Counted from the stretch's first letter, positions 4,846 to 23,486 are shown. The stretch: 41,360 bases of DNA from Gemmatimonadota bacterium (GCA_028287225.1 JAQBPZ010000111.1:1-41360); one strand, 5' to 3'. The notes: generated by a model not told the origin, from the letters alone. Numbers and translations are program-made.

Positions 4846-4964
4846 CCGATTCGCCTATGCTGGTTCGATGGTGTCGTCATGGATCACGCTTTTCTACCGG
4901 GAATTTTCGGCCGGAGCGCGACAGCCCACATGCCGCCGGCCCTGCTCCGGAATGTGATTCTACC

Positions 4965-8164: not shown

Positions 8165-8192
8165 GCCGCCCCGGCCCCACCCCGCGCGCTGC

Positions 8193-9106: not shown

Positions 9107-9133
9107 CGTCGCCTGCATCAGTCCGGAGCTCAT

Positions 9134-9310: not shown

Positions 9311-9311
9311 C

Positions 9312-9530
9312 ATGATCAAGCTCCTCATCATCCTGCTCGTCGGCGTCGGGCTCGGCTACACGTACGGCTACATGCACGGCGCCGCGGGCGACGCGAGCAT
9401 CATCACCTCCACCCTCGACAAGGTGGGCGTGCATCATGCGGCTGCTCGTGGCGCCGGCGATGCCGGCGCCGAGCGCCAGGCGCGCGCCGATTCGGTGCGG
9501 CAGCGCTCCACCATCCGCACCGCTCGCTGA
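9312..9530 (+). CDS. Small membrane protein (72 aa), paralogue of 9134..9310
   Basis: MIKLLIILLVGVGLGYTYGYMHGAAGDAS... Its ATG lies 1 nt after the preceding stop. Confidence 0.55.
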   Translation: MIKLLIILLVGVGLGYTYGYMHGAAGDASIITSTLDKVGVHHAAARGAGDAGAERQARADSVRQRSTIRTAR

Positions 9531-9570
9531 CCGACCCCCGCGCGTTCACGGAAAGAGAGAGACAGAAGCG

Positions 9571-10272
9571 ATGGACGACATCGAGCGGATCTATCGACAC
9601 CTGGTGCGGACGGTGCGGGCCAACTTCGCCCCGTTCCTCACGCAGCCGTTCGAGGTCGGGGAGCTGTACCAGACGATCCTGCCCTACCGTCTGCACCGCC
9701 GCGAGCTCGGCTTCGAGACCAACCAGGACTATGAGATGGCGATGCTCGAGCTTCTCTCGGGCGCGCGCGGCTATCTCATCGTGGACGACAAGATGCGCGA
9801 CGTCCTCTCGGCGGAGCAGTCGGCGAAGAATCCGGATCCGACCATCGTGCGGGACTTCGCGTCGTCACACGTCGCCCTCGCGCCGGAGCCGTTGCGCCGC
9901 CTCGAGATCGAGGGACGGGCTTCCGGCTCGCAGGCGACGATCCCGATGTCGCCGCCGGTGCAGACGCGCGCCTCGGGGAGCTTCGCGGCGCTCACCGCCT
10001 CCCAGCCCCCGCGCCCGAGCATCCCGACGCCGGCCGCCGGCCATCCGATCGACGGCCTGGGCGGCCGGCGCACCGCGCGCCCCATCACCATCGCCCCCAC
10101 CGGCGAGAACTGCCCCTTCTGCCGCGGCCACCTGCCGGCCGGCCGCCAGGTGAGCTTCTGTCCCCACTGCGGCCAGGACCTCACGGTGGTGCACTGCCCG
10201 GCCTGCGGCAGCGAGCTGGAGCGAGGATGGAAGTTCTGCGTGACCTGCGGACGGTCGGCCGTCGATCTGTAG
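9571..10272 (+). CDS. Zinc-ribbon domain protein (N-terminal unknown domain, Pro-rich linker, C-terminal double zinc ribbon)
   Basis: ATG 9571. C-terminus has CPFCRGH..FCPHCG..HCPACGS..FCVTCG. Confidence 0.75.
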   Translation: MDDIERIYRHLVRTVRANFAPFLTQPFEVGELYQTILPYRLHRRELGFETNQDYEMAMLELLSGARGYLIVDDKMRDVLSAEQSAKNPDPTIVRDFASSHVALAPEPLRRLEIEGRASGSQATIPMSPPVQTRASGSFAALTASQPPRPSIPTPAAGHPIDGLGGRRTARPITIAPTGENCPFCRGHLPAGRQVSFCPHCGQDLTVVHCPACGSELERGWKFCVTCGRSAVDL

Positions 10273-10442
10273 GGGGACGCAGGACGGTCGGACGCTTTTC
10301 GGTTTACGGTTTGTCGGTTTGTCGGTTTATGGCGTGCCTCGGGACGCATTGGCTGACCGGGGCTGGCCGTAAACCGACAAACCGTAAACCGACAAACCGC
10401 AACCGCCAGACGGTCCTGTGCGGTCCTACCGTCCTACCGTTC
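10273..10442. repeat. Nested palindromic intergenic element with CGGTTT(A/G) repeat arms
   Basis: Left arm 10300-10330 (CGGTTTACGGTTTGTCGGTTTGTCGGTTTAT) is complementary to right arm 10367-10404, with at least 21 bp perfect. Outer arms (GCAGGACGGTCGGACG vs GGTCCTACCGTCCTACCGT) are also complementary. Core GGCGTGCCTCGGGACGC is at 10331-10347. Confidence 0.8.
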
Positions 10443-10496
10443 TCCACGGTGCATCCCTTGCCTGTAGGCCCCGGTACCCCAACGCACGGAACCGCC

Positions 10497-11627
10497 ATGC
10501 CCATCCCCCGCCGCCTCGCTGCCCTCGCCGCCCTCGCGCTCGTCGCCGCCTGCGCCCCGGGGACGGCGCCAGCCCCGACGCCGTCGCCGATGCCCGACGC
10601 GCGAACGCCGACGAACCCGAACGCGGGGCCCACGCCGCTCGTGAACACCACGTGGCCCGTCCGGTCGCGCGAGCACGTCGACCTCTGGCTGCACAGCTAC
10701 GCCCTGCTGACGCGCGACACCACGCTGGTCCCCTACTTCGATCGCGGCTACCGCGAGCGCATGCTCACGGCGCGGCGCGAGCGGTCCGCCACCTCGCTGC
10801 TCGACACCAACCGCGACCGGCTCCTCCAGCGCATCGCCGTGAACCCTGCGCTGGCGACGAACGGCCAGTTCCTCCCCCTCTACTTCGATTCGTGGGAGCG
10901 GATGCGACAGGCCATCGACCTCACGATCCGCGCGAACGGCAACCCGAACGCCTCCAATGACCCGGAGACGCGCACCTACATCGCGATCATCGCCAGCGCC
11001 TTTCCCTCGGCCCCCGATCGCGAATGGCTGCGCACCTTCTCGGAGAGCGCCGACGACGAGAGCCGGCGCTTCTATCACGCATGGTGGACGGGCGCCGGTG
11101 CGGCGCGCGGACGCGCGGTGCAGCACGTGGACTCGCTCTGGCAGCGGCAGTGGCGGCCCGCGCTCCAGCGCTTCCTGAACAACACCCAGCAGCAGAACGG
11201 CGAGCTCTATCTGTCCGCGCCACTCGGCGGCGAGGGGCGCACCGTGCATTTCGGCAAGCAGCAGAACGCGGTCGCGGTGCCGCTGCCGGAGTCGTTCGCC
11301 CAGAGCGACGCCGTGCTGTACGTGATGGCGCACGAGATCGCTGGCACCCTGGCCAACGCCGCGATCGAGGACAACACCACGCCCGCCGATCGCCGAGCGG
11401 GCGTGACGTCCCGCTTCGAGCAGTCGGCCGCCGTGCGGGCCGGCGCACTGCTGCTGGACCGCGTGCTGCCATCGGCCGTGCCGGGCTACATGCGCTACTA
11501 CCTCCAGCAGGCGGGCCGCACCGCGCCGAACGAGCCGCGCACCGCGTTCAACACCGCCTTCGCCCTGCCCGACGCCGTGCGCGACGCGCTCGCCCGGCAG
11601 ATGGACGTGATCCTCGGCGGGATCTGA
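10497..11627 (+). CDS. Hypothetical lipoprotein (376 aa)
   Basis: ATG 10497. Signal peptide plus lipobox (LALVAAC). No family recognised. Confidence 0.75.
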   Translation: MPIPRRLAALAALALVAACAPGTAPAPTPSPMPDARTPTNPNAGPTPLVNTTWPVRSREHVDLWLHSYALLTRDTTLVPYFDRGYRERMLTARRERSATSLLDTNRDRLLQRIAVNPALATNGQFLPLYFDSWERMRQAIDLTIRANGNPNASNDPETRTYIAIIASAFPSAPDREWLRTFSESADDESRRFYHAWWTGAGAARGRAVQHVDSLWQRQWRPALQRFLNNTQQQNGELYLSAPLGGEGRTVHFGKQQNAVAVPLPESFAQSDAVLYVMAHEIAGTLANAAIEDNTTPADRRAGVTSRFEQSAAVRAGALLLDRVLPSAVPGYMRYYLQQAGRTAPNEPRTAFNTAFALPDAVRDALARQMDVILGGI

Positions 11628-11636
11628 AACAACAAA

Positions 11637-11844
11637 GCGAGTAACGAGTAACGAGTAGGTCGAGAGGCGTCCCGGACGGTGGTGTCACCCTGCAGCCGCA
11701 GGCTGTCGGGGCATACTCTCCCGTGATGGGGACTGGCCCTGGGCACGGGACGGAATGCCCCGACACTCGCGATGCTCGCGCGGGGTGACATCCGCCCGGG
11801 ACGCCACGCTGCAGCTACTTACTCGTTACTCGTTCCTCGTTATT
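11637..11844. repeat. Rod-like nested palindrome with CGAGTAA heptad arms (same family as 37387-37588)
   Basis: Arms 11637-11658 / 11815-11844. GGCGTCCCGG 11666-11675 pairs with CCGGGACGCC 11796-11805. GTCACCC 11684-11690 pairs with GGGTGAC 11783-11789. GTCGGGGCAT 11705-11714 pairs with ATGCCCCGAC 11755-11764. Confidence 0.85.
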
Positions 11845-11853
11845 CTTCACCCC

Positions 11854-12654
11854 ATGCCGGATTCCAACCTCCCCCAGCGCATCGACCGCGCGGCCGTCGA
11901 CCGCGTGCTGGCGCGCGCGCTGGAGCTGCAGGCGTCGGCGTCGGGAGAGCCGCAGGCGGAGCAGCTCACGGAGGCGCAGCTGCTCGAGCTCGCGAAGGAG
12001 GTGGGGCTCGATCCGGTGAACCTCCGGCAGGCGCTCGCCGAGGAGCGTACCCGCGTGACCGTGCCGGAGGAGCGCGGCGTGCTCGCGGCCATGTACGGAC
12101 CCGCGTACGTCAGCGCGCAGCGCACCGTCCCCGGCACCCCGCAGCAGGTGCTCAAGGCGCTCGACGACTGGATGCAGCGGCAGGAAGGGCTCTGCGCGCA
12201 GCGCTACTTCAGCACCGAGCGCGTGGTGTGGGAGCCGCAGCAGGGCGTCGTGGGGCTCGTGCGTCGCGCCGTGAGCGGCCGCGCGCACTCGCTCGCGCGC
12301 GCCTCCGACGTCGCGGCCACCGCCATCGCGGTCGACGCCAGCCGCGTGCTCGTGCGCCTCGACGCCCGGCTCCTCGGCTATCGGGCCCTGATGGCGCAGC
12401 AGAACGCCATGCTCACCGGCGCCAGCCTGGTGGGTGGCGGCATCCTCGCCGTCCTCGCCTTCCCGGTCTTCGCGATCGCCGCGCCCGTCGCGGTCATCGC
12501 CCCCGCCGCCTGGGCCACCGCACGCGGCTCCCACCGCCGCACCGTCGACCGCGCCCAGATCGCCCTGGAACAGGTGCTGGACCGCCTCGAGCGCGGTGAA
12601 GCCGGACGGCCGCCAACCTTGCTGAGCATGCTGGCCGCGGCCGTACGACGATAG
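11854..12654 (+). CDS. Hypothetical membrane protein (266 aa)
   Basis: ATG 11854. Hydrophobic stretch GASLVGGGILAVLAFPVFAIAAPVAVIAPAAWA. No family recognised. Confidence 0.7.
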   Translation: MPDSNLPQRIDRAAVDRVLARALELQASASGEPQAEQLTEAQLLELAKEVGLDPVNLRQALAEERTRVTVPEERGVLAAMYGPAYVSAQRTVPGTPQQVLKALDDWMQRQEGLCAQRYFSTERVVWEPQQGVVGLVRRAVSGRAHSLARASDVAATAIAVDASRVLVRLDARLLGYRALMAQQNAMLTGASLVGGGILAVLAFPVFAIAAPVAVIAPAAWATARGSHRRTVDRAQIALEQVLDRLERGEAGRPPTLLSMLAAAVRR

Positions 12655-12901: not shown

Positions 12902-13948
12902 TCAGATCGTCACGCGCTGCTTCATCACCCGGTCCGCCAGCCAGTCGAGCCCTCGGTTGCTCAGCACCATCAGGAAGCCGAGCAGGGTCAGCGACTTCAC
13001 CTCGCGGCGGGTGATCTTCACCACGTCGCGGCGCGCCATGGCCTGCGGGGTCCGCGTCAGGTCGCGCAGCGTCGCGTATGCGAAGAGCAGCGGCAGCAGG
13101 CAGAAGAGCCGGATCGATACGGCACGCCGAGGGATGTGCAGCAGGTAGCTGCGCGCCCCCTCCAGGTCGTGCCACGCCAGCTGCACCAGCATGCCGAGCG
13201 CGGACTGGGTTCCCTCGAGCTTCGCGCCGCTCAGGACGTCGGCATGGCTGCTCCCGTGCGCGCGCAGCAGCTCCTGCGGCACGTAGATGGAGTTCTCCCG
13301 CTCGGCGTCCGTCGCGACGTCCTTCAGGATGTTCACCGTCTGCAGCCCCTCGGCGAAGGCGCGGCACCGCTCGCGCAGCACGGCGTACCGCCGCTCGCCG
13401 ATGCTCCCCGCGTGCTCGTGCCACAGGTCGGTGAGCAGGTAGCCCACCGTGCCGGCCACGTAGTAGCAGTACTCCTTGTACTCGTCGAGGCTCTGGATCC
13501 GGATGCCATGCGGATACAGCAGCACGAACTTCCGCATCCCCGTGATCATCTCGCCCACCCAGCGGCGCACCGCGGCACGCGTGGGCGGCGACATCCGCCG
13601 GTACAGCACGAACACGAGGTCGGCGTTGCGCGTGAGGCGCACGTGGGCCGGCTCGCCGGTGAGCGTCGCGACGCGCGCGGGAAAGGCATCGGCCGCCGCG
13701 GGATCGTCGAAGCAGGCGAGCAGCTCGTCCAGCAGCGCCGCCTTCGCCTCCGCCGGCTGCGTCGGCTCGTCCTCGAGCGTGTCGGCGATGCGGCACAGCA
13801 GGTACGCCGTGAGCACCGCCTGCCCCAGCGCGCCAGGCAGCACGCGGATGCTCAGCGCGAACGTCCGCGAGACCGCCGGCAGCACCTCCCGCCCGAACCG
13901 CTCCGCCTCGGCAACTCGCGCGGCATCCTCGGCCACCATCAGCTCCAT
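12902..13948 (-). CDS. Squalene/phytoene synthase family protein
   Basis: 348 aa, forming the 3' part of the 1679-aa track ORF. Asp-rich motifs RIADTLEDE and LKDVATDAERE; also YCYYVAGTVGYLLT. Confidence 0.85.
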   Translation of the reverse strand: MELMVAEDAARVAEAERFGREVLPAVSRTFALSIRVLPGALGQAVLTAYLLCRIADTLEDEPTQPAEAKAALLDELLACFDDPAAADAFPARVATLTGEPAHVRLTRNADLVFVLYRRMSPPTRAAVRRWVGEMITGMRKFVLLYPHGIRIQSLDEYKEYCYYVAGTVGYLLTDLWHEHAGSIGERRYAVLRERCRAFAEGLQTVNILKDVATDAERENSIYVPQELLRAHGSSHADVLSGAKLEGTQSALGMLVQLAWHDLEGARSYLLHIPRRAVSIRLFCLLPLLFAYATLRDLTRTPQAMARRDVVKITRREVKSLTLLGFLMVLSNRGLDWLADRVMKQRVTI

Positions 13949-14161
13949 TCGCACTCCCGTCCCCTTGGTGTCTTCGCTCCTACGACGGCACTCCGGCGCG
14001 GATCCGCCGCGGACGCCGCGCGGTCGTCGCGGCTGAAGATCCGAAGGGGCTGCTTCGACCGCCTTGGCATTCCCGCGGCGATCCCTTACGCATTCGGTGT
14101 CAGCCCGGGAAAGATACTTCGCAGCTCCACGCATGGCATCGCCGACGCACCCTCGCCAGCA

Positions 14162-15808
14162 ATGACGACCTCCGCGCTCCAGCCGCCGGACGACTTCCGC
14201 GGGACCTTCCGCGACGACGTCGCCGCACGCGCGGTGTACAGCGAGGCGGCGGGCATCGCGCAGGTGATGCCGCGGGCCGTCGCCGAACCGCTCGACGCCG
14301 ACGACGTGGTCGCCCTCGTGCACTGGGCCGCGGCCACGCGCACCCCGCTCGTGCCGCGCGGCTCGGGCAGCAGCATGGCCGGTGGCGCCATCGGCGGCGG
14401 CGTCATCGTGGACCTCAGCCGGCTGCGCGGCATCGACGCGGTGGATGTGACGCAGCGCACGGTGCGCTGCCGTCCCGGCGCGCTGCGCGACGAGGTGGAC
14501 GCGGCCGCGCGGGCCCGCGGGCTTCAGTTCCCGGTGGATCCCTCCAGCGGGGCCTACTGCACGGTGGGCGGCATGGCGTCCACCAACTCGGCGGGCGCCC
14601 ACACGCTGCGCTACGGGGCGATGCGTCCGTGGGTGCAGGCGCTCGACTGCGTCTTCGCCGATGGCTCCCGCGCCGAGGTCCGCCGGGGCGCCGTGCCGCC
14701 GGACGTCGAGCCGGTGCGACGCCTGCTCGCCGCCGCCCCCGCGCTCGTGGCCGCCGAGCACATCGCCCCCTCGCGTCATGCCGGCGTGCGCAAGGAGAGC
14801 TCGGGTTACGGGCTCGCCGCATGGGCGGAGTCCGGCGACCTCGTCGACCTGCTCGTGGGCAGCGAGGGAACCCTCGTGCTCATCGTGGGCCTGGAGCTCC
14901 GCCTCGCGCCGCTGCACCCGGCCACGGCGAGCGTCCTCGGCGTGTTCACGTCGCTGGAGCAGGCGGTGGACGCCGCCGTCGGCGCGCGCGAGGCCGGCGC
15001 CGCGGCGTGCGAGCTCCTCGACCGTACGTTCCTGGACGTTGCGCGCCGCGGGGGCGCGTCCACCATCGGCGAGGAGGCCGAGGCGGTGCTGCTCGCCGAG
15101 GTGGAAGGGAGCAGCGCCGACGACTGCGCCGCGCAGGCGCGCGTGCTGGAGGGCTGCTTCCGCGGCGCGGGCGCCACCGACGTCGTCCTGGCCCTCGACG
15201 CGGCCACCGAGCACGCGATGTGGGAGCTGCGCCACGCCGCCAGCCCCATTCTGAGCCGGCTCGATCCCGCGCTCAAGTCCATGCAGTTCATCGAGGACGG
15301 CTGCGTCCCCCCCGCGCGGCTCGCCGAGTACGTGCGGGGCGTGCGTGCGGCGCTGGACCGGCAGGGGATCCGCGGCGTGATCTTCGGCCATGCCGGCGAC
15401 GCGCACATGCACGTGAACCCGCTCGTGGACCTGCGCGACGCCGACTGGCGCGCGAAGGTGGACGCCCTGCTCGCCGACGTGACGGCGCTGGCGAGCCGGC
15501 TCGGCGGCACGGTGGCGGGCGAGCACGGCGACGGACGCCTGCGCGCGCCCCTGCTGCCCGCCGTGTGGCCCGCGGCGACGCTCGAGCGGTTCGCCGCCGT
15601 GAAGCGCGCCTTCGACCCGGCGGGCCTGCTGAATCCCGGGGTCAAGGTGCCCCTCCCGGGCTCGCACGCGGTGGAGGCGGTCAAGTACGATCCCGCGCTC
15701 CCCGCGCTCCCCCGCGCGGCGCGCGCCGTGCTCGCCACCGTCGAGCGAGAGCGGGCCTATGCGCGCTCGCGCCTGGCGATGCTCGACGCGGGCGCGGGCG
15801 ACGCCTAG
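14162..15808 (+). CDS. FAD-linked oxidase (GlcD/D-lactate dehydrogenase-like)
   Basis: ATG 14162. FAD-binding PCMH region (PLVPRGSGSSMAGGAIGGGVIVDLSRL) and C-terminal GTVAGEHGDGRLR. Confidence 0.9.
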   Translation: MTTSALQPPDDFRGTFRDDVAARAVYSEAAGIAQVMPRAVAEPLDADDVVALVHWAAATRTPLVPRGSGSSMAGGAIGGGVIVDLSRLRGIDAVDVTQRTVRCRPGALRDEVDAAARARGLQFPVDPSSGAYCTVGGMASTNSAGAHTLRYGAMRPWVQALDCVFADGSRAEVRRGAVPPDVEPVRRLLAAAPALVAAEHIAPSRHAGVRKESSGYGLAAWAESGDLVDLLVGSEGTLVLIVGLELRLAPLHPATASVLGVFTSLEQAVDAAVGAREAGAAACELLDRTFLDVARRGGASTIGEEAEAVLLAEVEGSSADDCAAQARVLEGCFRGAGATDVVLALDAATEHAMWELRHAASPILSRLDPALKSMQFIEDGCVPPARLAEYVRGVRAALDRQGIRGVIFGHAGDAHMHVNPLVDLRDADWRAKVDALLADVTALASRLGGTVAGEHGDGRLRAPLLPAVWPAATLERFAAVKRAFDPAGLLNPGVKVPLPGSHAVEAVKYDPALPALPRAARAVLATVERERAYARSRLAMLDAGAGDA

Positions 15809-15859
15809 CTTTCCCGCCGCGCCACGCCCCTCCTCGTTCCTCGTGCCTCGCTCCGTGCA

Positions 15860-16636
15860 ATGACCGCAGCCGCTCCCGTCACGCCCCGGCTCTACCTCGA
15901 GCCGGTGGTCACCGTGCTCTCGCGTCCCGCCTTCACCACGCCCGAGCACCTGCCGGTGCAGTGGATGGGCGAGAGCACCGACGGCGAGCGCCTCGCCGAG
16001 TTCGCGGGACGGCTCTGCTACATGAGCCAGCACAACCCCGCGGGCCGGTCCACGCGCGACTACCTGGAGAACATCAAGAAGCAGGGGCACGGCAGTGTGC
16101 TGGAGCACGCGAACTACTCGCTGCTCCTCGAGGGGGTCAGCCGGTCGCTCACGCACGAGCTGGTGCGGCACCGCTCCGGGTTTTCCTACAGCCAGCTGAG
16201 TCAACGGTACGTCGACGAGAGCCAGGCGGCGTTCGTCGTGCCCCCGGCCATCGCCGGCGACGACGCGCTTCTCGAGGCGTGGCGCACGCAGATCGAGGGG
16301 GCGCAGGCGGCGTACGTGTCGCTCGTCGCCCAGCTCATGGAGCGCTACGGCTGGGTGGCCGACAAGGTCCACCGCCGGAAGATGGCGCGCGAGGCGGCGC
16401 GCGGCGTGCTGCCCAACTCCACCGAGACCAAGATCGTCGTCACCGGCAACGCCCGGGCGTGGCGCACGATGCTCGAGCTGCGCTCCAGCGAGGCGGCCGA
16501 GCTGGAGATCCGCCGCCTCGCCATCATCGCGCTCCGGGTGCTCCAGGCCGAGGCGCCCGCCTTCTTCTCCGACTTCGAGATCTACCAGGCGGAGGATCGC
16601 CGCGAGGCGGCACGGATCGGCTACCACAAGGTCTGA
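15860..16636 (+). CDS. thyX: FAD-dependent thymidylate synthase
   Basis: ThyX signature RHRSGFSYSQLSQRY. 258 aa. Confidence 0.95.
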   Translation: MTAAAPVTPRLYLEPVVTVLSRPAFTTPEHLPVQWMGESTDGERLAEFAGRLCYMSQHNPAGRSTRDYLENIKKQGHGSVLEHANYSLLLEGVSRSLTHELVRHRSGFSYSQLSQRYVDESQAAFVVPPAIAGDDALLEAWRTQIEGAQAAYVSLVAQLMERYGWVADKVHRRKMAREAARGVLPNSTETKIVVTGNARAWRTMLELRSSEAAELEIRRLAIIALRVLQAEAPAFFSDFEIYQAEDRREAARIGYHKV

Positions 16637-16657
16637 TCGCCGGCGGATTATTTTCTG

Positions 16658-16686
16658 TTGCGCGAAAAAACCCGTGCACCTATCTT
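16658..16686 (+). promoter_or_regulatory. Sigma-70-like promoter candidate for the ATP-grasp/GNAT/kamA operon
   Basis: TTGCGC (16658-16663), 17-nt spacer, TATCTT (16681-16686), in a local AT-rich patch. This leaves a ~130-nt 5' UTR. Confidence 0.35.
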
Positions 16687-16822
16687 CGCCGTGCGCTGTG
16701 CGTGGCGTGGCTCTTGCCCGCGTGCACCGTGTACGTGAGCGACGACCCGCACGCTCGCTCCTCGCGTGATCTCGCGGCGATCCGGCGGCACTCTCACGAC
16801 AGCAGCCCACAGCAGGGACGGG

Positions 16823-17968
16823 ATGACGCGCATCGGTTTCGCGTACAATCAGAAGCCCGACCCTTCGGCCCCGGCAGCGGTGCCCGATGCGGCCGAGCCG
16901 GCCCTCGCCGACGAGGAGCCGCCCAGTAGGGACGGCGCGCTGGCGACGCTGGCGACGCGCGCCGCGCCGCGCCTCTCGCCCGTGACCCACGACGACGAGT
17001 ACGCCGAGTGGGACAGCGCCGAGACGATCGACGCCGTGGAACGCGCCCTCGCGCGGTACGGCGAGGTGATCCGCCTCGAGGCCACCGACGACTTTCCGCA
17101 GCGCCTCCGCCACGCGCGCCCGGACATCGTCTTCAACATCGCCGAGGGCCTCCGCGGGCCGAACCGCGAAGCGCACGTGCCGGCCATCTGCGAGTTCTAC
17201 GGGGTGCCGTACTCCGGCAGCGACCCGTTCACGCTCGCCCTCTGCCTCGACAAGGCGCGCACCAAGGAGATTCTCCGCGCCCACGCGGTGCCCACCGCCG
17301 ACTGGTTCCTCGTGCGCAGCCACCAGGCGCTGGGCGCGCTCGACCTGGGCGCGCTGCGCTTTCCGCTGTTCGCCAAGCCCGTGCACGAGGGCTCCTCCAA
17401 GGGCATCACGGAGCGGAACTTCGTGTCGTCCGCCGCGGAGCTCACGCTCGTGGTGGGCGAGCTGCTCGAGCGCTACCAGCAGCCGGTGATCGTGGAGACC
17501 TTCCTTCCCGGCGCGGAGTTCACCTGCGGCGTCCTGGGCAACGGCGCCCGCGCGCGCGTGCTGCCCATCGTGGGCATGAACTTCGGCGCGCTGCCGGCGG
17601 GCGCGCTGCCCATCTACGGGTTCGAGGCGAAGTGGCTCTGGGACCGCCCGGAGCACCCGCTCCCGATCTTCGAGTGCCCGGCACCCGTGGACGACCGGAC
17701 TCGCGACGAGATCGTGGACGTGGTCCTTCGCGCCTTCGAGGCGCTGGGGTGCCGTGACTGGACGCGGGTGGACGTGCGGCTCGACGCCGCCGGCCGCGCG
17801 AACGTCGTGGAGGTGAACCCGCTGCCGGGCATCCTCCCCGATCCCACGGACAACTCGTGCCTCCCGAAGGCCGCACGCGCCGCCGGCATCGGCTACGACG
17901 CGCTCATCGGTGCCTGCCTGGAGGCCGCCGCCGACCGCCATGGCCTCGCGCTGGACACGCGCCGATGA
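16823..17968 (+). CDS. ATP-grasp ligase, D-Ala-D-Ala ligase-like (1 of 2)
   Basis: ATG 16823. Ddl-like pattern: NIAEGLRGPNREAHVPAICEFYGVPYSGS, LCLDKARTKEIL, FAKPVHEGSSKGI, EVNPLPGI. Confidence 0.85.
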   Translation: MTRIGFAYNQKPDPSAPAAVPDAAEPALADEEPPSRDGALATLATRAAPRLSPVTHDDEYAEWDSAETIDAVERALARYGEVIRLEATDDFPQRLRHARPDIVFNIAEGLRGPNREAHVPAICEFYGVPYSGSDPFTLALCLDKARTKEILRAHAVPTADWFLVRSHQALGALDLGALRFPLFAKPVHEGSSKGITERNFVSSAAELTLVVGELLERYQQPVIVETFLPGAEFTCGVLGNGARARVLPIVGMNFGALPAGALPIYGFEAKWLWDRPEHPLPIFECPAPVDDRTRDEIVDVVLRAFEALGCRDWTRVDVRLDAAGRANVVEVNPLPGILPDPTDNSCLPKAARAAGIGYDALIGACLEAAADRHGLALDTRR

Positions 17969-19020
17969 AGATCGCCATCCTCTTCGACGGCCTCAGCGCG
18001 GCGTCGCCGGACCAGCTCATCGTCACCACCGTGGACGCGGTGGCCATGGAGCTCGCCGGTGAGGGAAACGAGATCGTGCGCCTCCCGGTCAGCCCGGACG
18101 CGCGGTGGATCGAGCGGCTGCGGCGCGCGCGCGTGGACTTCGTGTTCAACCTCTGCGAGTCGGTGGACGGCGTCGCCGCGCTGGAGCCGCCCGTCATCGC
18201 CGTGCTCGAGCTGCTCGGCCTGCCGTACAGCGGCAGCTCCAGCTGGACGGCCGCGCTCTGCCTGCGGAAGCACGTGGTGAACGCCGCGTTGGAAGGGGCC
18301 GGCCTCCCCGTCCCACGATTCGCCGTCGTGCGCCGCGGCGGTGCCGTGCCCTCCGTCGGCTTTCCCGCCATCTGCAAGCCGGCGGCGGAGGACGCGTCCA
18401 TCGGCGTGGAGCAGCGCTCCGTCGTGCGCACCACGCGGCAGCTCACCGAGCGCGTGGGCGCGATGCTCGAGCGCTGGGACGAAGTGCTGGTGCAGCGGTA
18501 CATCGAGGGGCGCGAGGTGAACGTCGGCATCCTGGGCGACGCCACGCTGCCCATCGCCGAGATCGACTTCGGCCAGATGCCCAAGGGCATGTGGCGCATC
18601 GTGACCTACCGGAGCAAGTGGGAAACCGGGTGCGACGAGGACCTCGGCTCCTCCCCGCGCTGCCCGGCGCGCCTGCCGGCCGGCGTCGCCACGCAGCTGC
18701 GCCGGACCGCCGTCGCCGCCTGGCGGCTCGTCGGTGGCTCGGGCTACGGGCGCGTGGACTTCCGCATCGACGAGCGCGGGCGCCCGTGGATCCTCGAGGT
18801 CAACGCCAACCCCGACATCGCCCCGGATGCGGGGCTGGCACGAATGGCCCGCGTCGCGGGCATCGAGTACGGCGCAATGGTGCGGCGCGTGTGCGAGCTC
18901 GGCCTCCAGCGCGGGCGCGCGGACGGCGCCACCGCGGACAAGTGGGCGCTCGCCCAGCGGCTCTCCGGCGTGCCGACGGCCGACGCCGAGCCCGACCTGT
19001 TCACCATCGGCGAGGCCTAG
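17965..19020 (+). CDS. ATP-grasp ligase, D-Ala-D-Ala ligase-like (2 of 2)
   Basis: ATGA overlap at 17965-17968. Motifs: NLCESVDG, LELLGLPYSGS, LCLRKHVVN, CKPAAEDASIGV, EVNANPDI. Confidence 0.85.
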   Translation: MKIAILFDGLSAASPDQLIVTTVDAVAMELAGEGNEIVRLPVSPDARWIERLRRARVDFVFNLCESVDGVAALEPPVIAVLELLGLPYSGSSSWTAALCLRKHVVNAALEGAGLPVPRFAVVRRGGAVPSVGFPAICKPAAEDASIGVEQRSVVRTTRQLTERVGAMLERWDEVLVQRYIEGREVNVGILGDATLPIAEIDFGQMPKGMWRIVTYRSKWETGCDEDLGSSPRCPARLPAGVATQLRRTAVAAWRLVGGSGYGRVDFRIDERGRPWILEVNANPDIAPDAGLARMARVAGIEYGAMVRRVCELGLQRGRADGATADKWALAQRLSGVPTADAEPDLFTIGEA

Positions 19021-19028
19021 CGACCGCC

Positions 19029-19583
19029 ATGCGAATTGCGCCGTTGCGGGCTGCCGATCGTGCGCGTCTTTCGCAGTTGCTGGTCTCCACCGGTGCGTTC
19101 AACGCCGAGGAGGTGCAGGTGGCCCTCTCGCTCTTCGACCTCTCGATGGACGAGCCGCGCGGGCGCGCGGGCCCGGTGCCGGGCGCACCCTCCACGACGA
19201 GCGTCGCGGATGATGCCATGGATTACGAGTTCATCGGGGCGTACGACGGGGAGCGGTTGATGGGCTACGCATGCTTCGGCCCGACGCCCTCCACCGAGGG
19301 AACGTTCGACCTGTACTGGCTCGCGGTGGATCCGGTGGCGCAGGGACGCGGCGTCGGACGCGCGATGCTGCGTGACGTGGAACGGCGGCTGGCCGATCGC
19401 GGGGCACGGCTCCTCGTGGCCGAGACCTCGGGACGGCCCGACTACGCCGCGACGCGCGCGTTCTACCTGGCCACGGGCTACACGGTGGCGGCGACGGTGA
19501 AGGACTTCTACGCTCCGGCGGATGACCGGATCATGCTCCACAGACGGCTCACGACACGAGAGCGCGGAGTAGCGACGCGATGA
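19029..19583 (+). CDS. GNAT family N-acetyltransferase
   Basis: ATG 19029, 8 nt after the previous stop. Acetyl-CoA motif A is VDPVAQGRGVGRAML. Confidence 0.8.
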   Translation: MRIAPLRAADRARLSQLLVSTGAFNAEEVQVALSLFDLSMDEPRGRAGPVPGAPSTTSVADDAMDYEFIGAYDGERLMGYACFGPTPSTEGTFDLYWLAVDPVAQGRGVGRAMLRDVERRLADRGARLLVAETSGRPDYAATRAFYLATGYTVAATVKDFYAPADDRIMLHRRLTTRERGVATR

Positions 19584-20770
19584 GTGATTGGCAGAAGGTT
19601 CTGCGTGACGACAGCATCAGCACCCTGGAGCAGCTCAGGGCGTACGTCGCAGAGCGCTTCGGTGAAGAGGCCGCGGCCCGCGAGATCGACGTGGAGGCCC
19701 TGCGCCCCGCCTTCGACAACTTCCAGATGCGGATCACCCGCGAGTCGCTCTCGCAGATCCGCGAGGTGGGGGATGCGAACTGGAACCAGTTCATCCCCTC
19801 CGTCCAGGAGCTGGAGATCGTCGACGGCGTGATCGACTCGCTCGACGAGGACGGCGACTCCCCGGTGCCGAACATCACGCACCGCTATCCGGACCGCGCC
19901 CTCTTCCTCGTCAGCCCCGTGTGCGCGAGCTACTGCCGCTTCTGCACCCGGCGCCGCAAGGTCGGCGATCCCGAGAAGATCTCGCTCCGCGAGTACGAGT
20001 CCGCGTTCCAGTACCTCGCCGAGCACACCGAGATCCGCGACGTCATCCTCTCCGGCGGCGACCCGATGATGCTCAGCGACCAGCGGCTGGAATACATCCT
20101 CCAGCGGCTCCGCGCCATCCCGCACATCGAGATCATCCGGCTGGGCAGCCGCATCACCTCGCACCTCCCGGAGCGCGTGACGCCGGAGTTCTGCGACATG
20201 GTGCAGAAGTACCACCCGATCTTCATGAACACGCACTTCAACCACCCGAGCGAGCTCACCCCCGCCGCGGTGGCCGCCCTCGACCGCCTCTCGCGCGCGG
20301 GCGTCTCGCTCGGCTGCCAGACGGTGCTGCTCAAGGGCGTCAACGACGACCCGCACGTCATGATGAAGCTCATGCACGAGCTGCTCAAGGCGCGCGTCCG
20401 CCCCTACTACATCTACATGGCCGACCAGGTGGCGGGCGGAGAGCACTTCCGCACCACCGTCCAGAAGGGGCTCGAGATCATCCAGGCGCTCCGCGGCTGG
20501 ACGTCGGGGCTCGCCGTGCCGCAGTTCGTCATCGACGCCCCCGGCGGCGGGGGCAAGGTGCCCCTCCTGCCCGAGTACGTCGAGGAGATCACCGACGACG
20601 AGGTGATCTTCCGGAACTACGAGGGCAAGCGCTTCACCTACAAGCAGCCCAGGCAGGCCGTCCCCGACGCCGCGCCGGGCATCGCGGCCGAGGCGTCGGG
20701 CGTGGTGCCGATCGCGGCGGGCAAGAGCGCCAAGAAGCGGGCGGCCAGGCGGCGGTCCGCGAACGGCTGA
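19580..20770 (+). CDS. kamA: Lysine 2,3-aminomutase family radical SAM enzyme (KamA/AblA-like)
   Basis: ATGA overlap at 19580-19583. Radical SAM cluster motif CASYCRFCTRRR. Also SGGDP, RLGSR and VLLKGVNDD, typical of the KamA family. Confidence 0.92.
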   Translation: MSDWQKVLRDDSISTLEQLRAYVAERFGEEAAAREIDVEALRPAFDNFQMRITRESLSQIREVGDANWNQFIPSVQELEIVDGVIDSLDEDGDSPVPNITHRYPDRALFLVSPVCASYCRFCTRRRKVGDPEKISLREYESAFQYLAEHTEIRDVILSGGDPMMLSDQRLEYILQRLRAIPHIEIIRLGSRITSHLPERVTPEFCDMVQKYHPIFMNTHFNHPSELTPAAVAALDRLSRAGVSLGCQTVLLKGVNDDPHVMMKLMHELLKARVRPYYIYMADQVAGGEHFRTTVQKGLEIIQALRGWTSGLAVPQFVIDAPGGGGKVPLLPEYVEEITDDEVIFRNYEGKRFTYKQPRQAVPDAAPGIAAEASGVVPIAAGKSAKKRAARRRSANG

Positions 20771-20873
20771 TCCGGCCGCCTTCGCGCTGGCGCCATCTGG
20801 TTACATCCACGAGGTTGGGGGGTACGACGTCCCGTCCGGACGCCGCCCCTTCGCCTGCCTGGAGTACCCTGCA

Positions 20874-23486
20874 ATGATGACGTCCCCCCGCACGGCGAGC
20901 CGCGCTGCGCGCCGGCTCGCCGTCGCCTTCGTCATGATCGGGATCGGTGCCTGCGGCGGAGGGGGCGGCGAGTCGCCACCCACCACGCCCCCCGTTGCCC
21001 CGGTCGCCTCGGTGACGGTCGCGGCCCTGCCCGCCGTCGTCTACGTCGGCGCGACCTTGCAGCTCGCCGTCACCACGCGGGATGCGGCCGGCGTCCAGCT
21101 CACCGGACGGGCGGTCACCCACAGCTCCAGCAACAACGCGATCGCGACGGTCACCTCCACCGGCCTCGTCACGGCCACCGGTGTGGGGACCACCACCATC
21201 CGCGTCGCCAGCGAAAGCCAGGCGGCCGACGTCACCGTCAACGTCGCGCTCGTTCCCGTCGTCTCCGTCGTCGTCACCCCGCCATCGGCGACGCTTGGCC
21301 TGGGCGCCTCGCTCCAGCTCACCGGCACGCCGCGCGATTCCGCCAACGGCGCGCTGTCCGGCCGGGCGATCGGCTGGACGTCCACCGCGGAGTCGATCGC
21401 CCGCGTCTCGGCCACCGGCCTGGTCACCGGCGTCGCCGCCGGCACGGCCACCATCCGCGCCACCGTCGATGGAAAGGTCGGCGAGTCGGCGATCACGGTG
21501 TCGTCCTCTGCCAGCCCGACAATCACCAGCGTCAGCCCGGCGCTCCTTGCCCCGGGCGTCACGGTGACCATCACGGGCACGAGCTTCGGCACCGTGACCA
21601 CGGCCAACACCGTCACCATCGACGGGGTGAGCGCCACGGTGATCACCGCGTCGGAAACGCAGCTCACCGTCACGGTGCCGCCACTGCCCTGCCAGCCCAC
21701 GCACTCCGCGCGCGTGCAGGTCATCGCACAGGGGCTCGGCGCCACGGCGCTCCAGCCCGCGCGCGCCGGCACCGTCGTCAACGTCACCACCAACGCGCCA
21801 CTCCTGCTCTCCGCCGCCGAGGCGGCCTGCGCCGAGCTGCCCGCCGCCGCCGCGCGCTACGTGGTGAGCGTGGTGAATACCGCCTCGGAGCCCACCTCCA
21901 CCGCCGGCTTCCGGCTGGCCGGTGCGCTGCCCCCCGCGACGCTCGCGTCGCTCACCACCACGGGGTCGGCGCTCCACCAGTCCGTCGCGACCCCGTCCCA
22001 GTCCGTCGTGCGCACCGCCGGCACCGAGCCGCTGGTGAACGGCGCGACCCGCTCCGTCGCCCAGCGGCTGCACACGTCCATCCTCGCGGAGAACCGCGCC
22101 GCCTTCGCCCGCCTTCGCGCCTCGCGCGGCAGCCTCCGCGCGCGCACGTCGGCCAGCCGGTCGGTGGCGCCCTCTGGAGCCCGCGCCGCGACCCTGCCCG
22201 CCGTGGGCGAGACGCGGAAGTTCCGCATCGCGCAGTTCAGCACCGCGCTCAACGCGACCGGCAGCTGCAGCAACTTCGTGGAGATCACCGCGCGCGCGGT
22301 CTACATCGGCTCCCACGGGGTGATCTACGAGGACGTCGCGGCGCCGCTCGCCAGCACCATGGACTCCTACTATCGCAACCTCGGGGACGAGTTCGACAGG
22401 AGCATGTACGTCGTCGACTCCACCTACTTCGGCGATCCGCTGGTCACGGATCCATTCACGGACAACGACCGCCACTTCAACATGGTGTTCACGCCGTCCA
22501 TCACGCAGGGGGTCGCCGGCTTCGTCACCAGCTGCGACTTCTTCCAGCGCGACTCGTCGGGTACCTCACGGGACAACCGGGAGAGCAACTTCGGCGAGTA
22601 CTTCTACGCCGTCGTCCCCACGGTCGCGGGCACGGGGTTCAGCAGCGGCAATACCCCCGACAGCTGGCTGCGCGGCATCCGGCACACCATCGTGCACGAG
22701 GTGAAGCACATCGCGTCGTTCGGCGCGCGCCTGACGAACAACGCCACCAACTACGAGGAGGCGTGGCTGGAGGAAGGCATGGCACGGCATGCCGAGGAGC
22801 TCTGGGAGCGGAACGCCATCTACAACGTCCCGTGGAAGGGCAACACCGGCTACCGCGAATCGCTGTACTGCGACGTGCGTCCCACCAACCCGTCGTGCAC
22901 CGGCCGGCCGTACGCGATGTTCAACCACTTCGGCACCCTGTACTCGGTGCTCGACAATCCCGGCGCATCCTCGCTGTTCGGCCGCGTCGCGGACGGCGAC
23001 TTCAGCTTCTACGCGTCGAGCTGGTCGCTGGTGCGCTACGCGCTGGACCGCTACGCCACCTCGGAGGCGAGCTTCCTGCGCGGCATCACCCAGAGCGCCA
23101 CGACGAGCGGCATGGCCAGCATCACCGCGCAGACGGGCGGACACTCCACCGCCGAGCTGCTCGCCAACTGGTCGCTCGCGATGTACTTCGACGACCAGAC
23201 GACCAATGCGGACATCAACTTCCCCACGTGGAACACGCATGACATCTACGCGGGGATGAACGCGGACTTCCCGAAGCCAGACGGGTATCCCAAGGCATTC
23301 CCGCTCACCCCCACCGCGGTCTCGGCGGCCTTCGTGGTGGACAACGACGGCATCCATGGGGGCTCGTTCGCCATGTACATCGTTCCGGCCAACGCCGGCG
23401 GACCGAGCACCCTCCAGCTCGTGGCCGCCGGGGGCGCGGGCAGCGCCAATCCATCGCTGCGCATCGCCCTGGTGCGCACGCCCTGA
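20874..23486 (+). CDS. Lipoprotein with Big_2 Ig-like repeats, an IPT/TIG-like domain and a C-terminal HEXXH gluzincin-like domain
   Basis: Lipobox IGIGAC. Three repeats of type LQL..T.RDA.G..L.GRA..W.SS...IA.V..TGLVT..G.GT..I.A. HEVKH followed by WLEEGMA, resembling the M1-type WLNEGFA. Confidence 0.85.
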   Translation: MMTSPRTASRAARRLAVAFVMIGIGACGGGGGESPPTTPPVAPVASVTVAALPAVVYVGATLQLAVTTRDAAGVQLTGRAVTHSSSNNAIATVTSTGLVTATGVGTTTIRVASESQAADVTVNVALVPVVSVVVTPPSATLGLGASLQLTGTPRDSANGALSGRAIGWTSTAESIARVSATGLVTGVAAGTATIRATVDGKVGESAITVSSSASPTITSVSPALLAPGVTVTITGTSFGTVTTANTVTIDGVSATVITASETQLTVTVPPLPCQPTHSARVQVIAQGLGATALQPARAGTVVNVTTNAPLLLSAAEAACAELPAAAARYVVSVVNTASEPTSTAGFRLAGALPPATLASLTTTGSALHQSVATPSQSVVRTAGTEPLVNGATRSVAQRLHTSILAENRAAFARLRASRGSLRARTSASRSVAPSGARAATLPAVGETRKFRIAQFSTALNATGSCSNFVEITARAVYIGSHGVIYEDVAAPLASTMDSYYRNLGDEFDRSMYVVDSTYFGDPLVTDPFTDNDRHFNMVFTPSITQGVAGFVTSCDFFQRDSSGTSRDNRESNFGEYFYAVVPTVAGTGFSSGNTPDSWLRGIRHTIVHEVKHIASFGARLTNNATNYEEAWLEEGMARHAEELWERNAIYNVPWKGNTGYRESLYCDVRPTNPSCTGRPYAMFNHFGTLYSVLDNPGASSLFGRVADGDFSFYASSWSLVRYALDRYATSEASFLRGITQSATTSGMASITAQTGGHSTAELLANWSLAMYFDDQTTNADINFPTWNTHDIYAGMNADFPKPDGYPKAFPLTPTAVSAAFVVDNDGIHGGSFAMYIVPANAGGPSTLQLVAAGGAGSANPSLRIALVRTP

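Follow-up and report, generated by a model that had tools for sequence, protein, structure and literature searches.

What might a bacterium make with two Ddl-like ATP-grasp ligases, an acetyltransferase and a lysine 2,3-aminomutase encoded side by side? Such a set of genes lies in a 41,360-nt stretch of DNA from a Gemmatimonadota bacterium (GCA_028287225.1, JAQBPZ010000111.1:1-41360), the full length of which is referred to here as the window. A preliminary description had read the genes as an operon in which beta-lysine is ligated, possibly twice, and/or acetylated, and we found no published description of the four-gene cluster in the literature. To work out what the cluster could produce, we examined the layout of the genes (Table 1), the enzymes that they encode, and their conservation in other genomes.

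Table 1. Features of the cluster and of its upstream region, in window positions.
Feature	Position	Strand	Length	Remarks	Basis
Promoter-like TTGCGC-17 nt-TATCTT	16658..16686	+		conserved upstream of AG1	direct reading
5' leader	16687..16822	+		variable; GGGACGGG ribosome-binding site immediately before ATG	
AG1, Ddl-like ATP-grasp ligase	16823..17968	+	381 aa		ORF listing, direct reading
AG2, second Ddl-like ATP-grasp ligase	17965..19020	+	351 aa		ORF listing, direct reading
GNAT acetyltransferase, 2R7H subfamily	19029..19583	+	184 aa		ORF listing, direct reading
KamA-family radical SAM/PLP lysine 2,3-aminomutase	19580..20770	+	396 aa		ORF listing, direct reading

Operon layout and upstream region

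The four genes, whose Pfam and NCBIfam domains are Dala_Dala_lig_C (twice), GNAT, and Radical_SAM with LAM_C, form a single operon. The ORF listing and direct reading confirmed four co-directional genes where the preliminary description had placed them, and direct reading also bore out the tight junctions it had reported: an ATGA overlap between AG1 and AG2 (17965-17968), an 8-nt gap between AG2 and GNAT (cgaccgcc, 19021-19028), and another ATGA overlap between GNAT and KamA (19580-19583). We recognize a single operon because the genes overlap or adjoin, a scan of positions 15700-21200 found no promoter-like or terminator-like site inside it, and a conserved promoter-like site lies upstream. 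On direct reading, this site consists of TTGCGC (16658-16663) and TATCTT (16681-16686) separated by a 17-nt spacer; it matches the sigma-70 consensus at 8 of 12 positions and falls under the threshold of a consensus scan. Its promoter-like character, proposed earlier, is upheld by recurrence, as TTGCG[CT]-N17-TAT[CT]NT is found upstream of AG1 in approximately 40 Gemmatimonadota loci. When six related intergenic regions are aligned, the two hexamers do not vary while the remaining bases do, and a six-locus alignment showed that the ribosome-binding block GGG(A/G)(C/T)GGGATG is conserved among related loci.

The leader of about 130 nt that had been described is present in this window, but its length is not conserved among relatives, and across strict promoter matches the -10 element and the ATG lie 21 to 146 nt apart. 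An Rfam search of the leader gave no match near the gathering score, its fold had no extra stability relative to shuffled sequences (z = +1.5), and the alifold covariation term was unfavourable. The leader is not a conserved regulatory RNA. The true start of AG1 is the ATG at 16823, because the orthologous proteins of more than 40 loci start with MTRIGFAYNQKP / MRIGLAYN; an upstream GTG at 16766 was considered as the start and rejected, since these N-termini fit the ATG.

Enzymes encoded by the cluster

Both ligases match PF07478 (6e-32 for AG1 and 7e-28 for AG2), and source databases label both of them D-alanine-D-alanine ligase. We reject this label because the two proteins fail every Ddl model and their D-Ala-binding positions differ. 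The best Ddl model scores AG1 at 171 bits and AG2 at 155 bits against an NCBIfam cut-off of 243, and all Ddl equivalog and Van models are far under their cut-offs for both. H63 of E. coli DdlB is replaced by E and Y216 by W in both ligases, while AG2 has A at S150 and A/G at S281/L282, and AG1 has C at L282. An N-terminal insert makes the counterpart of DdlB E15 ambiguous; in AG1, the Glu of the YAEWD motif probably fills this place. After residue ~12, AG1 carries an acidic insert that is variable. AG2 is a 34%-identical paralogue of AG1 (147 bits), and the two are closer to one another than to DdlB. The catalytic residues of DdlB (K97, K144, K215, R255, D257, E270, and N272) are kept in both proteins and are essentially invariant in ~80 AG1 and ~84 AG2 orthologues, the sole exceptions being a single AG2 sequence at K144 and a single one at E270. 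Judged from their sequences, both ligases are very probably catalytically competent.

KamA has Radical_SAM and LAM_C domains in Pfam, matches 2A5H at 1.7e-106, and carries the CASYCRFC motif noted earlier at residues 115-122. Seven residues of 2A5H (C125, C129, C132, R134, D293, D330, and K337) are kept in the window protein as well as in all 120 cluster-linked homologues; in the published 2A5H structure, K337 is the PLP lysine, R134 binds the carboxylate, D293 and D330 bind the epsilon-ammonium group, and the CxxxCxxC cysteines hold the radical SAM cluster. With regard to the Zn-site cysteines, D takes the place of C268, and the translation shows no Cys motif near the C-terminus. Because the substrate-binding residues are conserved, KamA is predicted to convert lysine to beta-lysine, and it is in all probability lysine-specific. 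Only the generic KamA model of NCBIfam passes its cut-off for this protein, with the specific models scoring 421 (AblA), 386 (glutamate 2,3-aminomutase), 321 (arginine 2,3-aminomutase), and 222 bits (EpmB). Nine cluster-linked homologues reach 447-506 bits on the AblA equivalog model TIGR03820, so that all 10 proteins are under its cut-off of 525.4 bits. Glutamate 2,3-aminomutase, which reportedly has Lys/Asn in place of the Asp pair, was rejected as an identity, given the cut-off of 650 bits for TIGR04368 and the Asp kept at both positions. EpmB (YjeK) was likewise rejected: its cut-off is 369 bits, the homologues score 220-265 bits, and LAM_C is present. KamA thus stands outside the EpmB clade, and the absence of EpmA stated in the preliminary description also held, as Pfam found no EF-P or class II tRNA-synthetase-type (epmA-type) domain in the window genes scanned, and neither the window nor 160 fetched loci gave an efp match in tblastn with E. 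coli EF-P.

The third protein matches PF00583 at 3e-12 and contains the acetyl-CoA motif QGRGVG. Its family profile matches PDB 2R7H (E = 2e-53, profile positions 6-156 of 160), a solved Desulfovibrio structure with no assigned function, to which the window protein is 41% identical, and the motifs GPTPxTxxTxDLYWIAV, ETSS, and DFYxPGDD are visible in the family alignment. RimI is its best NCBIfam match, under the cut-off, and the AblB model is absent among the NCBIfam matches at E <= 0.01. An identity as AblB was rejected because of this missing match and the membership in the 2R7H subfamily, and the earlier view that the cluster is not the AblA/AblB pathway therefore holds. Among named proteins, the protein N-terminal acetyltransferases of RimI/Naa type come closest to it, so a protein substrate is conceivable.

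Conservation of the four-gene module

The module is widespread and not peculiar to this genome, as 160 fetched loci, drawn from at least 8 phyla, have the four genes together. Two gene orders occur. AG1-AG2-GNAT-KamA is the order in 44 of the 57 untruncated genome loci, which include Gemmatimonadota, Planctomycetota, Chlorobiaceae, Ignavibacteriota, and Bacteroidota with different flanking genes, and KamA-AG1-AG2-GNAT is the order in 22 of the 30 untruncated metagenome loci (GC 29-71%), in Desulfovibrio mangrovi, and on a contig that encodes a GNAT with 99% identity to the Desulfovibrio 2R7H protein. At a Woeseia locus, KamA-AG1 stands at the start and a deacetylase-like gene followed by GNAT at the end. 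There are also fusion proteins that join AG1 to AG2, AG2 to GNAT, or all three. This co-occurrence in two gene orders, together with the fusions, shows that the four genes are functionally coupled, and the synteny that had been proposed as a test is strong far beyond close relatives. In about eight Gemmatimonadales loci, AG1-AG2-GNAT has no KamA next to it, which suggests that beta-lysine may not be obligatory or that kamA lies elsewhere in those genomes. The AG1-AG2 pair is also found in a MAG labelled as a Methanosarcinales archaeon.

The genes that flank the cluster are housekeeping genes: in Gemmatimonadota they are thyX, panBC, and EF-G, and in the loci of Bacteroidota, Ignavibacteriota, and Chlorobiaceae they are recG, dnaG, and an M24 peptidase. 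Near the cluster loci there is no recurrent gene for a transporter, an osmoregulator, or another stress function. Desulfovibrio-type loci have a sigma-54 enhancer-binding response regulator upstream. A class A PBP gene lies elsewhere in the window (37594-39885, 17 kb from the cluster), and one is also present near the cluster in related contigs.

Proposed product, alternatives, and known systems

We consider it fairly probable that the module makes an acetylated, beta-lysine-containing small molecule via two ATP-dependent amide bonds. KamA would convert L-lysine to beta-lysine, AG1 and AG2 would each form one ATP-dependent amide bond through an acyl-phosphate, and the 2R7H-type GNAT would acetylate a free amine with acetyl-CoA, giving a small acetylated beta-lysine amide or pseudo-peptide in a pathway that is self-contained from L-lysine. 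The acetyl group may stay in the finished product or may act as transient protection, and the latter option would fit lineages in which an acetylpolyamine-amidohydrolase-like gene shares the cluster. The product is presumably small and cytoplasmic. Acetylpolyamine amidohydrolases (6PHR, 247 bits), enzymes whose substrates are small molecules, are the nearest match of this recurrent fifth gene, and its affinity points to a small-molecule product, as does the lack of any precursor peptide, carrier protein, or efp gene in the cluster loci examined. A further indication comes from a Thioflavicoccus plasmid, where a related ATP-grasp adjoins another KamA and genes annotated as diaminobutyrate transaminase, an ornithine cyclodeaminase-type protein, and the 2,3-diaminopropionate biosynthesis protein SbnA. 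The product might serve as a compatible solute or as a polyamine-like nitrogen-rich metabolite, a role that is a guess because the flanks hold housekeeping genes and no stress or transport gene recurs nearby. Taken together, the reading in which beta-lysine is ligated and acetylated is supported, since KamA did not fall with EpmB and synteny was not lost, and we infer the product itself.

Other explanations can be set against this one. The ATP-grasps could, in a manner like that of RimK, LysX, or TTL, ligate beta-lysine and perhaps a second residue onto a translation factor or ribosomal protein, with the RimI-like GNAT acetylating the adduct or the protein. Beta-lysine is indeed used as a protein modification in EF-P beta-lysylation, which provides a precedent (PMC2821294), and both the RimI and N-terminal acetyltransferase relatives of GNAT and the housekeeping neighbours are in keeping with this idea. 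We nevertheless regard it as unlikely: the ligases are Ddl-like and not RimK-, LysX-, or TTL-like, KamA is LAM-type and not YjeK/EpmB-type, the associated deacetylase is of a small-molecule type, and besides the absence of efp from the window and the 160 loci, the cluster contains no conserved gene that is a candidate target. We also regard as unlikely a polymer synthase, in which the ligases would build a polyamide that contains beta-lysine, be it poly-beta-lysine or a backbone like that of cyanophycin bearing side chains, to store nitrogen or serve as a polycation, and acetylation would cap the polymer or control its charge. Some ATP-grasps do make polymers, for example RimK and the ATP-grasp domain of cyanophycin synthetase, two distinct ligases would fit a two-bond repeat unit, and the sigma-54 regulator of the Desulfovibrio-type loci would fit regulated expression, possibly by nitrogen status. 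However, the Ddl ligases, as the closest relatives that have been characterised, form dipeptides, there is no sign of processivity in the sequences, and no cyanophycinase-like or other depolymerase or export gene recurs at the cluster loci.

The remaining two explanations have very little probability in our estimation. One is that an ordinary AblA/AblB-type pair that makes N-epsilon-acetyl-beta-lysine as an osmolyte merely sits beside two paralogues of the cell-wall D-Ala-D-Ala ligase, as the database names of the ligases, the best score of KamA on the AblA model, and the adjacency of GNAT and KamA could suggest. Against it, the GNAT has no AblB match and belongs to the 2R7H subfamily, KamA is under the AblA cut-off in 10 of 10 proteins, and the ligases fail the Ddl models and differ at the D-Ala-binding positions. 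These ligases are also fused to one another and to GNAT, and in various phyla they accompany KamA in one or the other of two gene orders. The other, a cell-envelope pathway in which the ligases make a beta-lysine di- or tripeptide for peptidoglycan or another envelope polymer, draws on their Ddl ancestry and on the PBP gene in the window and near the cluster in related contigs. It is hardly probable, with that gene 17 kb away, the AG1-AG2 pair also present in the Methanosarcinales-labelled MAG, and no mur, fem, or flippase genes recurring beside the cluster loci.

The acetylated small-molecule pathway that we favour has parallels in several known systems. In the AblA/AblB system, which makes N-epsilon-acetyl-beta-lysine in methanogens and some bacteria, a LAM-type lysine 2,3-aminomutase likewise adjoins a GNAT, and the window KamA has its best score on the AblA model and retains the pair of Asp residues that bind lysine. 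The cluster differs in that its GNAT is not AblB-type, its KamA is under the AblA trusted cut-off, and two ATP-grasp ligases are obligatory partners, sometimes fused to GNAT. The Desulfovibrio protein 2R7H belongs to the same GNAT subfamily, and a 99%-identical protein is encoded in a KamA-AG1-AG2-GNAT cluster; its name, "putative D-alanine N-acetyltransferase of GNAT family", is a depositors' putative label with no assay result behind it, and the window GNAT differs by an extra low-complexity insert. Ddl and VanA share the fold family of AG1 and AG2 and the residues for ATP, Mg, and phosphoryl transfer, but the two ligases are under all Ddl and Van cut-offs and have no cell-wall gene context. 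The Ngg/AsnO pathway reportedly makes the dipeptide osmolyte N-acetylglutaminylglutamine amide and, by analogy only, shares the logic of a GNAT and an ATP-grasp ligation yielding an N-acetylated small peptide, with fusions of both domains. Its ATP-grasp and GNAT subfamilies and domain order appear different, and the input here would be beta-lysine from a radical SAM enzyme; Ngg has AsnO as an amidotransferase partner, and no asparagine-synthase-like amidotransferase adjoins the cluster in the loci examined. Finally, EpmA/EpmB is alike in that a KamA-family aminomutase supplies beta-lysine for an amide bond, although ligation in the present cluster would use ATP-grasp enzymes rather than a LysRS paralogue.

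Gene order, regulation and conservation of the cluster

The window (71% G+C) has Gemmatimonadaceae MAGs as its nearest relatives. Both the ORF listing and direct reading bore out the four genes of the preliminary description, namely two Ddl-like ATP-grasp ligase genes (AG1 and AG2), an acetyltransferase gene (GNAT) and a lysine 2,3-aminomutase family gene (KamA), together with their junctions: an ATGA overlap between AG1 and AG2, an 8-nt gap before GNAT, and a second ATGA overlap between GNAT and KamA. AG1 orthologues in more than 40 loci begin with MTRIGFAYNQKP or MRIGLAYN, which excludes the GTG at 16766 and shows that AG1 starts with the ATG at 16823. A site scan found no promoter-like or terminator-like sites within the four-gene block.

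Coordinates of the cluster genes and associated features (loci with L handles were fetched for comparison)
Feature	Sequence	Position	Strand	Basis or remark
AG1	window	16823-17968	+	ORF listing
AG2	window	17965-19020	+	ORF listing
GNAT	window	19029-19583	+	ORF listing
KamA	window	19580-20770	+	ORF listing
Promoter-like site TTGCGC-17-TATCTT	window	16658-16686	+	direct reading
Low-complexity insert in AG1	window	16856-16996		residues ~12-58
Low-complexity insert in GNAT	window	19158-19223		residues ~44-65
870-aa Big_2/TIG protein gene	window	20874-23486	+	between KamA and panB
Antisense ORF, 1679 aa	window	12902-17941	-	high-G+C artefact
Squalene/phytoene-synthase-like gene	window	~12902-13960		3' part of antisense ORF
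Family III CoA-transferase gene	window	3766-4854	-	
M20 peptidase/deacylase gene	window	6749-8164	+	
AG1-AG2-GNAT fusion ORF	L108	6902-9496		864 aa
AG1-AG2 pair	L066	3455-5415		end of contig
Fifth (deacetylase-like) gene	L166	9629-11386		
Fifth (deacetylase-like) gene	L107	9212-10954		
Fifth (deacetylase-like) gene	L086	9018-10868		
Fifth (deacetylase-like) gene	L168	6505-8001		
Sigma-54 enhancer-binding response regulator gene	L166	3857-5293		same orientation as cluster
Sigma-54 enhancer-binding response regulator gene	L167	3874-5310		same orientation as cluster
Sigma-54 enhancer-binding response regulator gene	L086	3157-4632		same orientation as cluster
Plasmid pTHIMO01 cluster	L164 (NC_019941.1)	6691-12172		

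The block had also been described as lying behind a promoter-like TTGCGC-17-TATCTT site and a leader of about 130 nt. Only 8 of its 12 hexamer positions agree with the sigma-70 consensus, and our consensus scan missed it, but its two hexamers are invariant across six aligned related intergenic regions in which the remaining bases vary, and about 40 Gemmatimonadota loci, with proteins only 45-80% identical, carry TTGCG[CT]-N17-TAT[CT]NT 5' of AG1. For these reasons it is a credible promoter. The leader length was not conserved, as the AG1 ATG follows the -10 element at 21 to 146 nt, depending on the locus. A riboswitch of recognisable kind or other structured RNA in this leader was rejected, since no Rfam match came near threshold, the fold was no better than that of shuffled sequence (z = +1.5), the alignment showed no covariation and the length is variable.

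A genome scan with the AG2 family alignment as query, taking one genome per species, returned 80 loci. The order AG1-AG2-GNAT-KamA was found in 44 of the 57 that were uncut by contig ends, in Gemmatimonadota and also in Planctomycetota, Chlorobiaceae, Ignavibacteriota and Bacteroidota; outside Gemmatimonadota the flanking genes are recG, gpsA, plsY, ispD, dnaG and an M24 peptidase gene, not thyX and panBC. A metagenome scan added 80 more loci (29-71% G+C). Of the 30 that were untruncated, 22 have the order KamA-AG1-AG2-GNAT, and in 29 KamA adjoins AG1. There are also fusion proteins of AG1 with AG2 (650-790 aa, one of them recorded from a Myxococcota MAG) and of AG2 with GNAT (500-540 aa), and a single ORF joining AG1, AG2 and GNAT lies directly downstream of KamA in L108, so that fusions tie AG1, AG2 and GNAT together. 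Desulfovibrio mangrovi also carries the cluster in its complete genome, as does a contig encoding a GNAT 99% identical to the Desulfovibrio protein of PDB entry 2R7H. Synteny in related genomes, which the preliminary description had proposed as a check, therefore held across phyla. With two gene orders, several fusions and flanks that are unrelated, it is very unlikely that chance or hitch-hiking brought the genes together, and the functional coupling of the four genes is the strongest result of our analysis.

Other loci show only parts of the arrangement. A locus of Woeseia (Gammaproteobacteria) has KamA, AG1, a deacetylase-like gene and GNAT, with a short unannotated ORF in the expected place of AG2, and a Spirochaetales-labelled contig whose start is cut off has an ATP-grasp gene and then GNAT. 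There are exceptions: in about eight Gemmatimonadales loci (L043-L046, L048, L049, L051 and L053) AG1-AG2-GNAT has no adjacent KamA and is followed by unrelated genes (TonB receptor, amidohydrolase, beta-propeller); either kamA is elsewhere in these genomes or a different amino acid is used. Two loci have AG2 alone. In L066, a 5.5-kb contig of a MAG labelled as a Methanosarcinales archaeon, the AG1-AG2 pair is at the contig end, and the contig stops before the GNAT/KamA position.

Predicted activities of the encoded enzymes

KamA contains Radical_SAM and LAM_C domains and matches the lysine 2,3-aminomutase of C. subterminale (2A5H) at 1.7e-106. The three cluster cysteines, R134, D293, D330 and K337 are kept in the window protein and in 120 of 120 cluster-linked homologues; in the published 2A5H structure R134 binds the substrate carboxylate, D293 and D330 the epsilon-ammonium group, and K337 the PLP. 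Among the NCBIfam models the window KamA scored highest with AblA (421 bits; cut-off 525), followed by those for glutamate 2,3-aminomutase (386), arginine 2,3-aminomutase (321) and EpmB (222; cut-off 369), and the generic KamA model was the only one whose cut-off it passed. Nine homologues from other phyla ranked the models in the same way (AblA 447-506 bits, EpmB 220-265 bits). These residues and scores indicate that KamA is of LAM type, with a predicted specificity for lysine, and belongs to a group sister to AblA. Placement in the EpmB clade, a possible outcome that the preliminary description had named, was rejected on the EpmB score. A link to EF-P was likewise rejected, as no efp gene was found in the window or in any of the 160 loci and no epmA-type domain was found among the window genes scanned, in agreement with the earlier remark that EpmA is not present.

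AG1 and AG2 are paralogues (34% identity, 147 bits) that score higher with each other than with E. coli DdlB (123 and 115 bits, respectively). Source databases label the cluster proteins only as "D-alanine-D-alanine ligase", "RimI-like", "GNAT" or "hypothetical". In DdlB numbering, K97, K144, K215, R255, D257, E270 and N272 are kept in both ligases across about 80 orthologues each, and neither protein reached the cut-off of any Ddl or Van model, with best scores of 171 bits for AG1 and 155 bits for AG2 against a cut-off of 243. At securely aligned Ddl substrate positions, H63 is replaced by Glu and Y216 by Trp in both proteins, while S150A and S281A/L282G occur in AG2 only, S150 and S281 being retained in AG1. 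Judging from these residues and scores, both proteins are probably active ligases, and neither is a D-Ala-D-Ala ligase. In Ddl, the serine that AG2 lacks holds the incoming D-Ala by its carboxylate, and we infer from this loss a hint that the amine acceptor of AG2 may be larger or may have no nearby carboxylate. An apparent change of E15 to Lys in AG1 was rejected, as a variable acidic insert makes that alignment column unreliable; the Glu of the conserved YAEWD motif after the insert is probably the E15 equivalent. This low-complexity insert, rich in Pro, Ala, Asp and Glu, lies between the first beta-strand and the YAEWD motif, and a similar one is present in GNAT; orthologues from other phyla are short or different at both places. 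An AlphaFold model of AG2 from a shallow alignment was poor (pLDDT 55).

The acetyl-CoA motif QGRGVG is present in the GNAT, which matched no AblB model in NCBIfam. A profile of 30 cluster-linked GNATs found 2R7H among solved structures at E = 2e-53, and the next matches were RimI, N-terminal acetyltransferases and AAC(6') enzymes at about 1e-8. By profile similarity, the 2R7H GNAT subfamily is the one definite family membership of the module beyond superfamilies. 2R7H was deposited as a "putative D-alanine N-acetyltransferase" and is without established function.

Neighbouring genes

When all neighbouring ORFs were clustered and the recurrent ones annotated, the only recurrent extra partners were an acetylpolyamine-amidohydrolase-like gene and a sigma-54 activator gene; these neighbours included no recurrent gene for a precursor peptide, carrier protein, exporter or EF-P. 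The former of the two partners is a fifth gene within the cluster in at least 13 loci, among them at least 10 from metagenomes and those of D. mangrovi and Woeseia; the window lacks it. Its protein begins with a GNAT-like domain that is fused to a domain of the histone-deacetylase fold, and its nearest solved relatives are the acetylpolyamine amidohydrolases 6PHR (247 bits) and 3Q9B, members of a group of small-molecule deacetylases. That one operon encodes both an acetyltransferase and a deacetylase suggests, by analogy with acetyl-protected amino-acid pathways, that the acetyl group may be a transient protecting group that steers which amine of beta-lysine is ligated. Recycling of the product is an alternative. 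In clusters that lack the deacetylase, such as that of the window, the acetyl group may remain on the product.

The sigma-54 enhancer-binding response regulator gene lies immediately 5' of KamA-first clusters in Desulfovibrio-type loci, including D. mangrovi and the 2R7H-like contig, which suggests signal-dependent expression there; the Gemmatimonadota version has the sigma-70-like site in its place. RecG, the M24 peptidase, PlsY, GpsA, DnaG, a Pit transporter and Fpg were rejected as partners, as they look like lineage-specific housekeeping neighbours, and a CxxCxxCC protein near the cluster is sporadic.

On the conjugative plasmid pTHIMO01 of Thioflavicoccus mobilis (L164), a Ddl-like ATP-grasp gene whose product is 35% identical to AG1 lies beside a divergent KamA-family gene and genes annotated as diaminobutyrate transaminase, 2,3-diaminopropionate biosynthesis protein SbnA and an ornithine cyclodeaminase-type protein, in a cluster adjoining IS66 elements. 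This context fits a wider ligase clade acting on diamino acids, and the cluster is possibly another diamino-acid peptide pathway.

Other window genes were also noted. The 870-aa protein combines Big_2 and TIG domains with a weak peptidase-MA-like region, and its N-terminus is probably that of a secreted protein or lipoprotein; the related contigs L001 and L002 lack its gene between KamA and panB, which makes it an insertion relative to them. The antisense ORF spans thyX and most of AG1, and only its 3' part is apparently a real gene by synteny with L001. The CoA-transferase and M20 deacylase genes lie 9-13 kb upstream of the cluster; the B. subtilis kamA operon also has a deacylase gene and CoA-transferase genes, and no linkage of either to the cluster was seen in the other loci.

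Proposed product and comparison with known systems

In the pathway that we propose, KamA would convert L-lysine to beta-lysine, AG1 and AG2 would each form one ATP-dependent amide bond, and the GNAT would N-acetylate an amine. The outcome is rather likely to be a small cytoplasmic di- or tri-amide of beta-lysine that carries an acetyl group. The reading of the preliminary description, in which beta-lysine is ligated and/or acetylated, is supported as far as computation reaches, and the finding is broader than was then thought, as it comprises a widespread module, a solved orphan structure and cultivated carriers. More tentatively, the product may represent a new class of beta-lysine metabolite made in at least eight bacterial phyla, namely a beta-lysyl di- or tri-amide that is either acetylated or protected for a time by an acetyl group. 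Our guess that it is a compatible solute or polyamine-like metabolite comes from analogy with N-epsilon-acetyl-beta-lysine and the N-acetylglutaminylglutamine amide of Ngg; no stress or transport gene backing a compatible-solute role was found among the cluster neighbours.

Other uses of the same enzymes can be envisaged. Modification of a protein is unlikely in our estimation, and synthesis of a polyamide polymer slightly more so. We give very little credence to an envelope peptide, and equally little to a plain AblA/AblB pair beside stray Ddl paralogues, given the gene orders and fusions that argue against hitch-hiking.

To our knowledge, few fates of beta-lysine are known: N-epsilon-acetyl-beta-lysine, the modification of EF-P, the fermentation of lysine and a few antibiotics. 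If the acetylated beta-lysyl amide is indeed the product, the cluster would be a fourth, widespread beta-lysine route, running through two dedicated ATP-grasp ligases and adding both a metabolite and ligase specificities that are new. It would also explain what thousands of genes now labelled "D-alanine-D-alanine ligase" or "GNAT" do, and likewise an orphan crystal structure. The two paralogous ligases would form a new family of beta-amino-acid or diamino-acid ligases with 2R7H as their dedicated acetyltransferase. Bacteria belonging to eight or more phyla and common in soils, sediments and sludge would make the product, and if it is a compatible solute, it could bear on the tolerance of Gemmatimonadota to dry soils. 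As the cluster is compact (~4 kb) and present in cultivated, genetically tractable Desulfovibrio, these proposals are directly testable.

A 2010 analysis of the LAM/YjeK family described two groups, one ablB-linked and one efp-linked, with no mention of ligases or ATP-grasp enzymes (PMC2821294). We found no paper describing the four-gene cluster in the full-text literature; earlier work is possible in subscription journals, which were outside this scope. By the tests applied, the module belongs to none of AblA/AblB, EpmA/EpmB, glutamate 2,3-aminomutase and Ddl; the preliminary description could not name a pathway that it corresponds to. It can be likened to AblA/AblB plus two ligases and is similar in logic to Ngg. 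The module is a new combination of known kinds of enzyme, and makes up a widespread and conserved pathway, predicted to run through beta-lysine, that is apparently uncharacterised so far.
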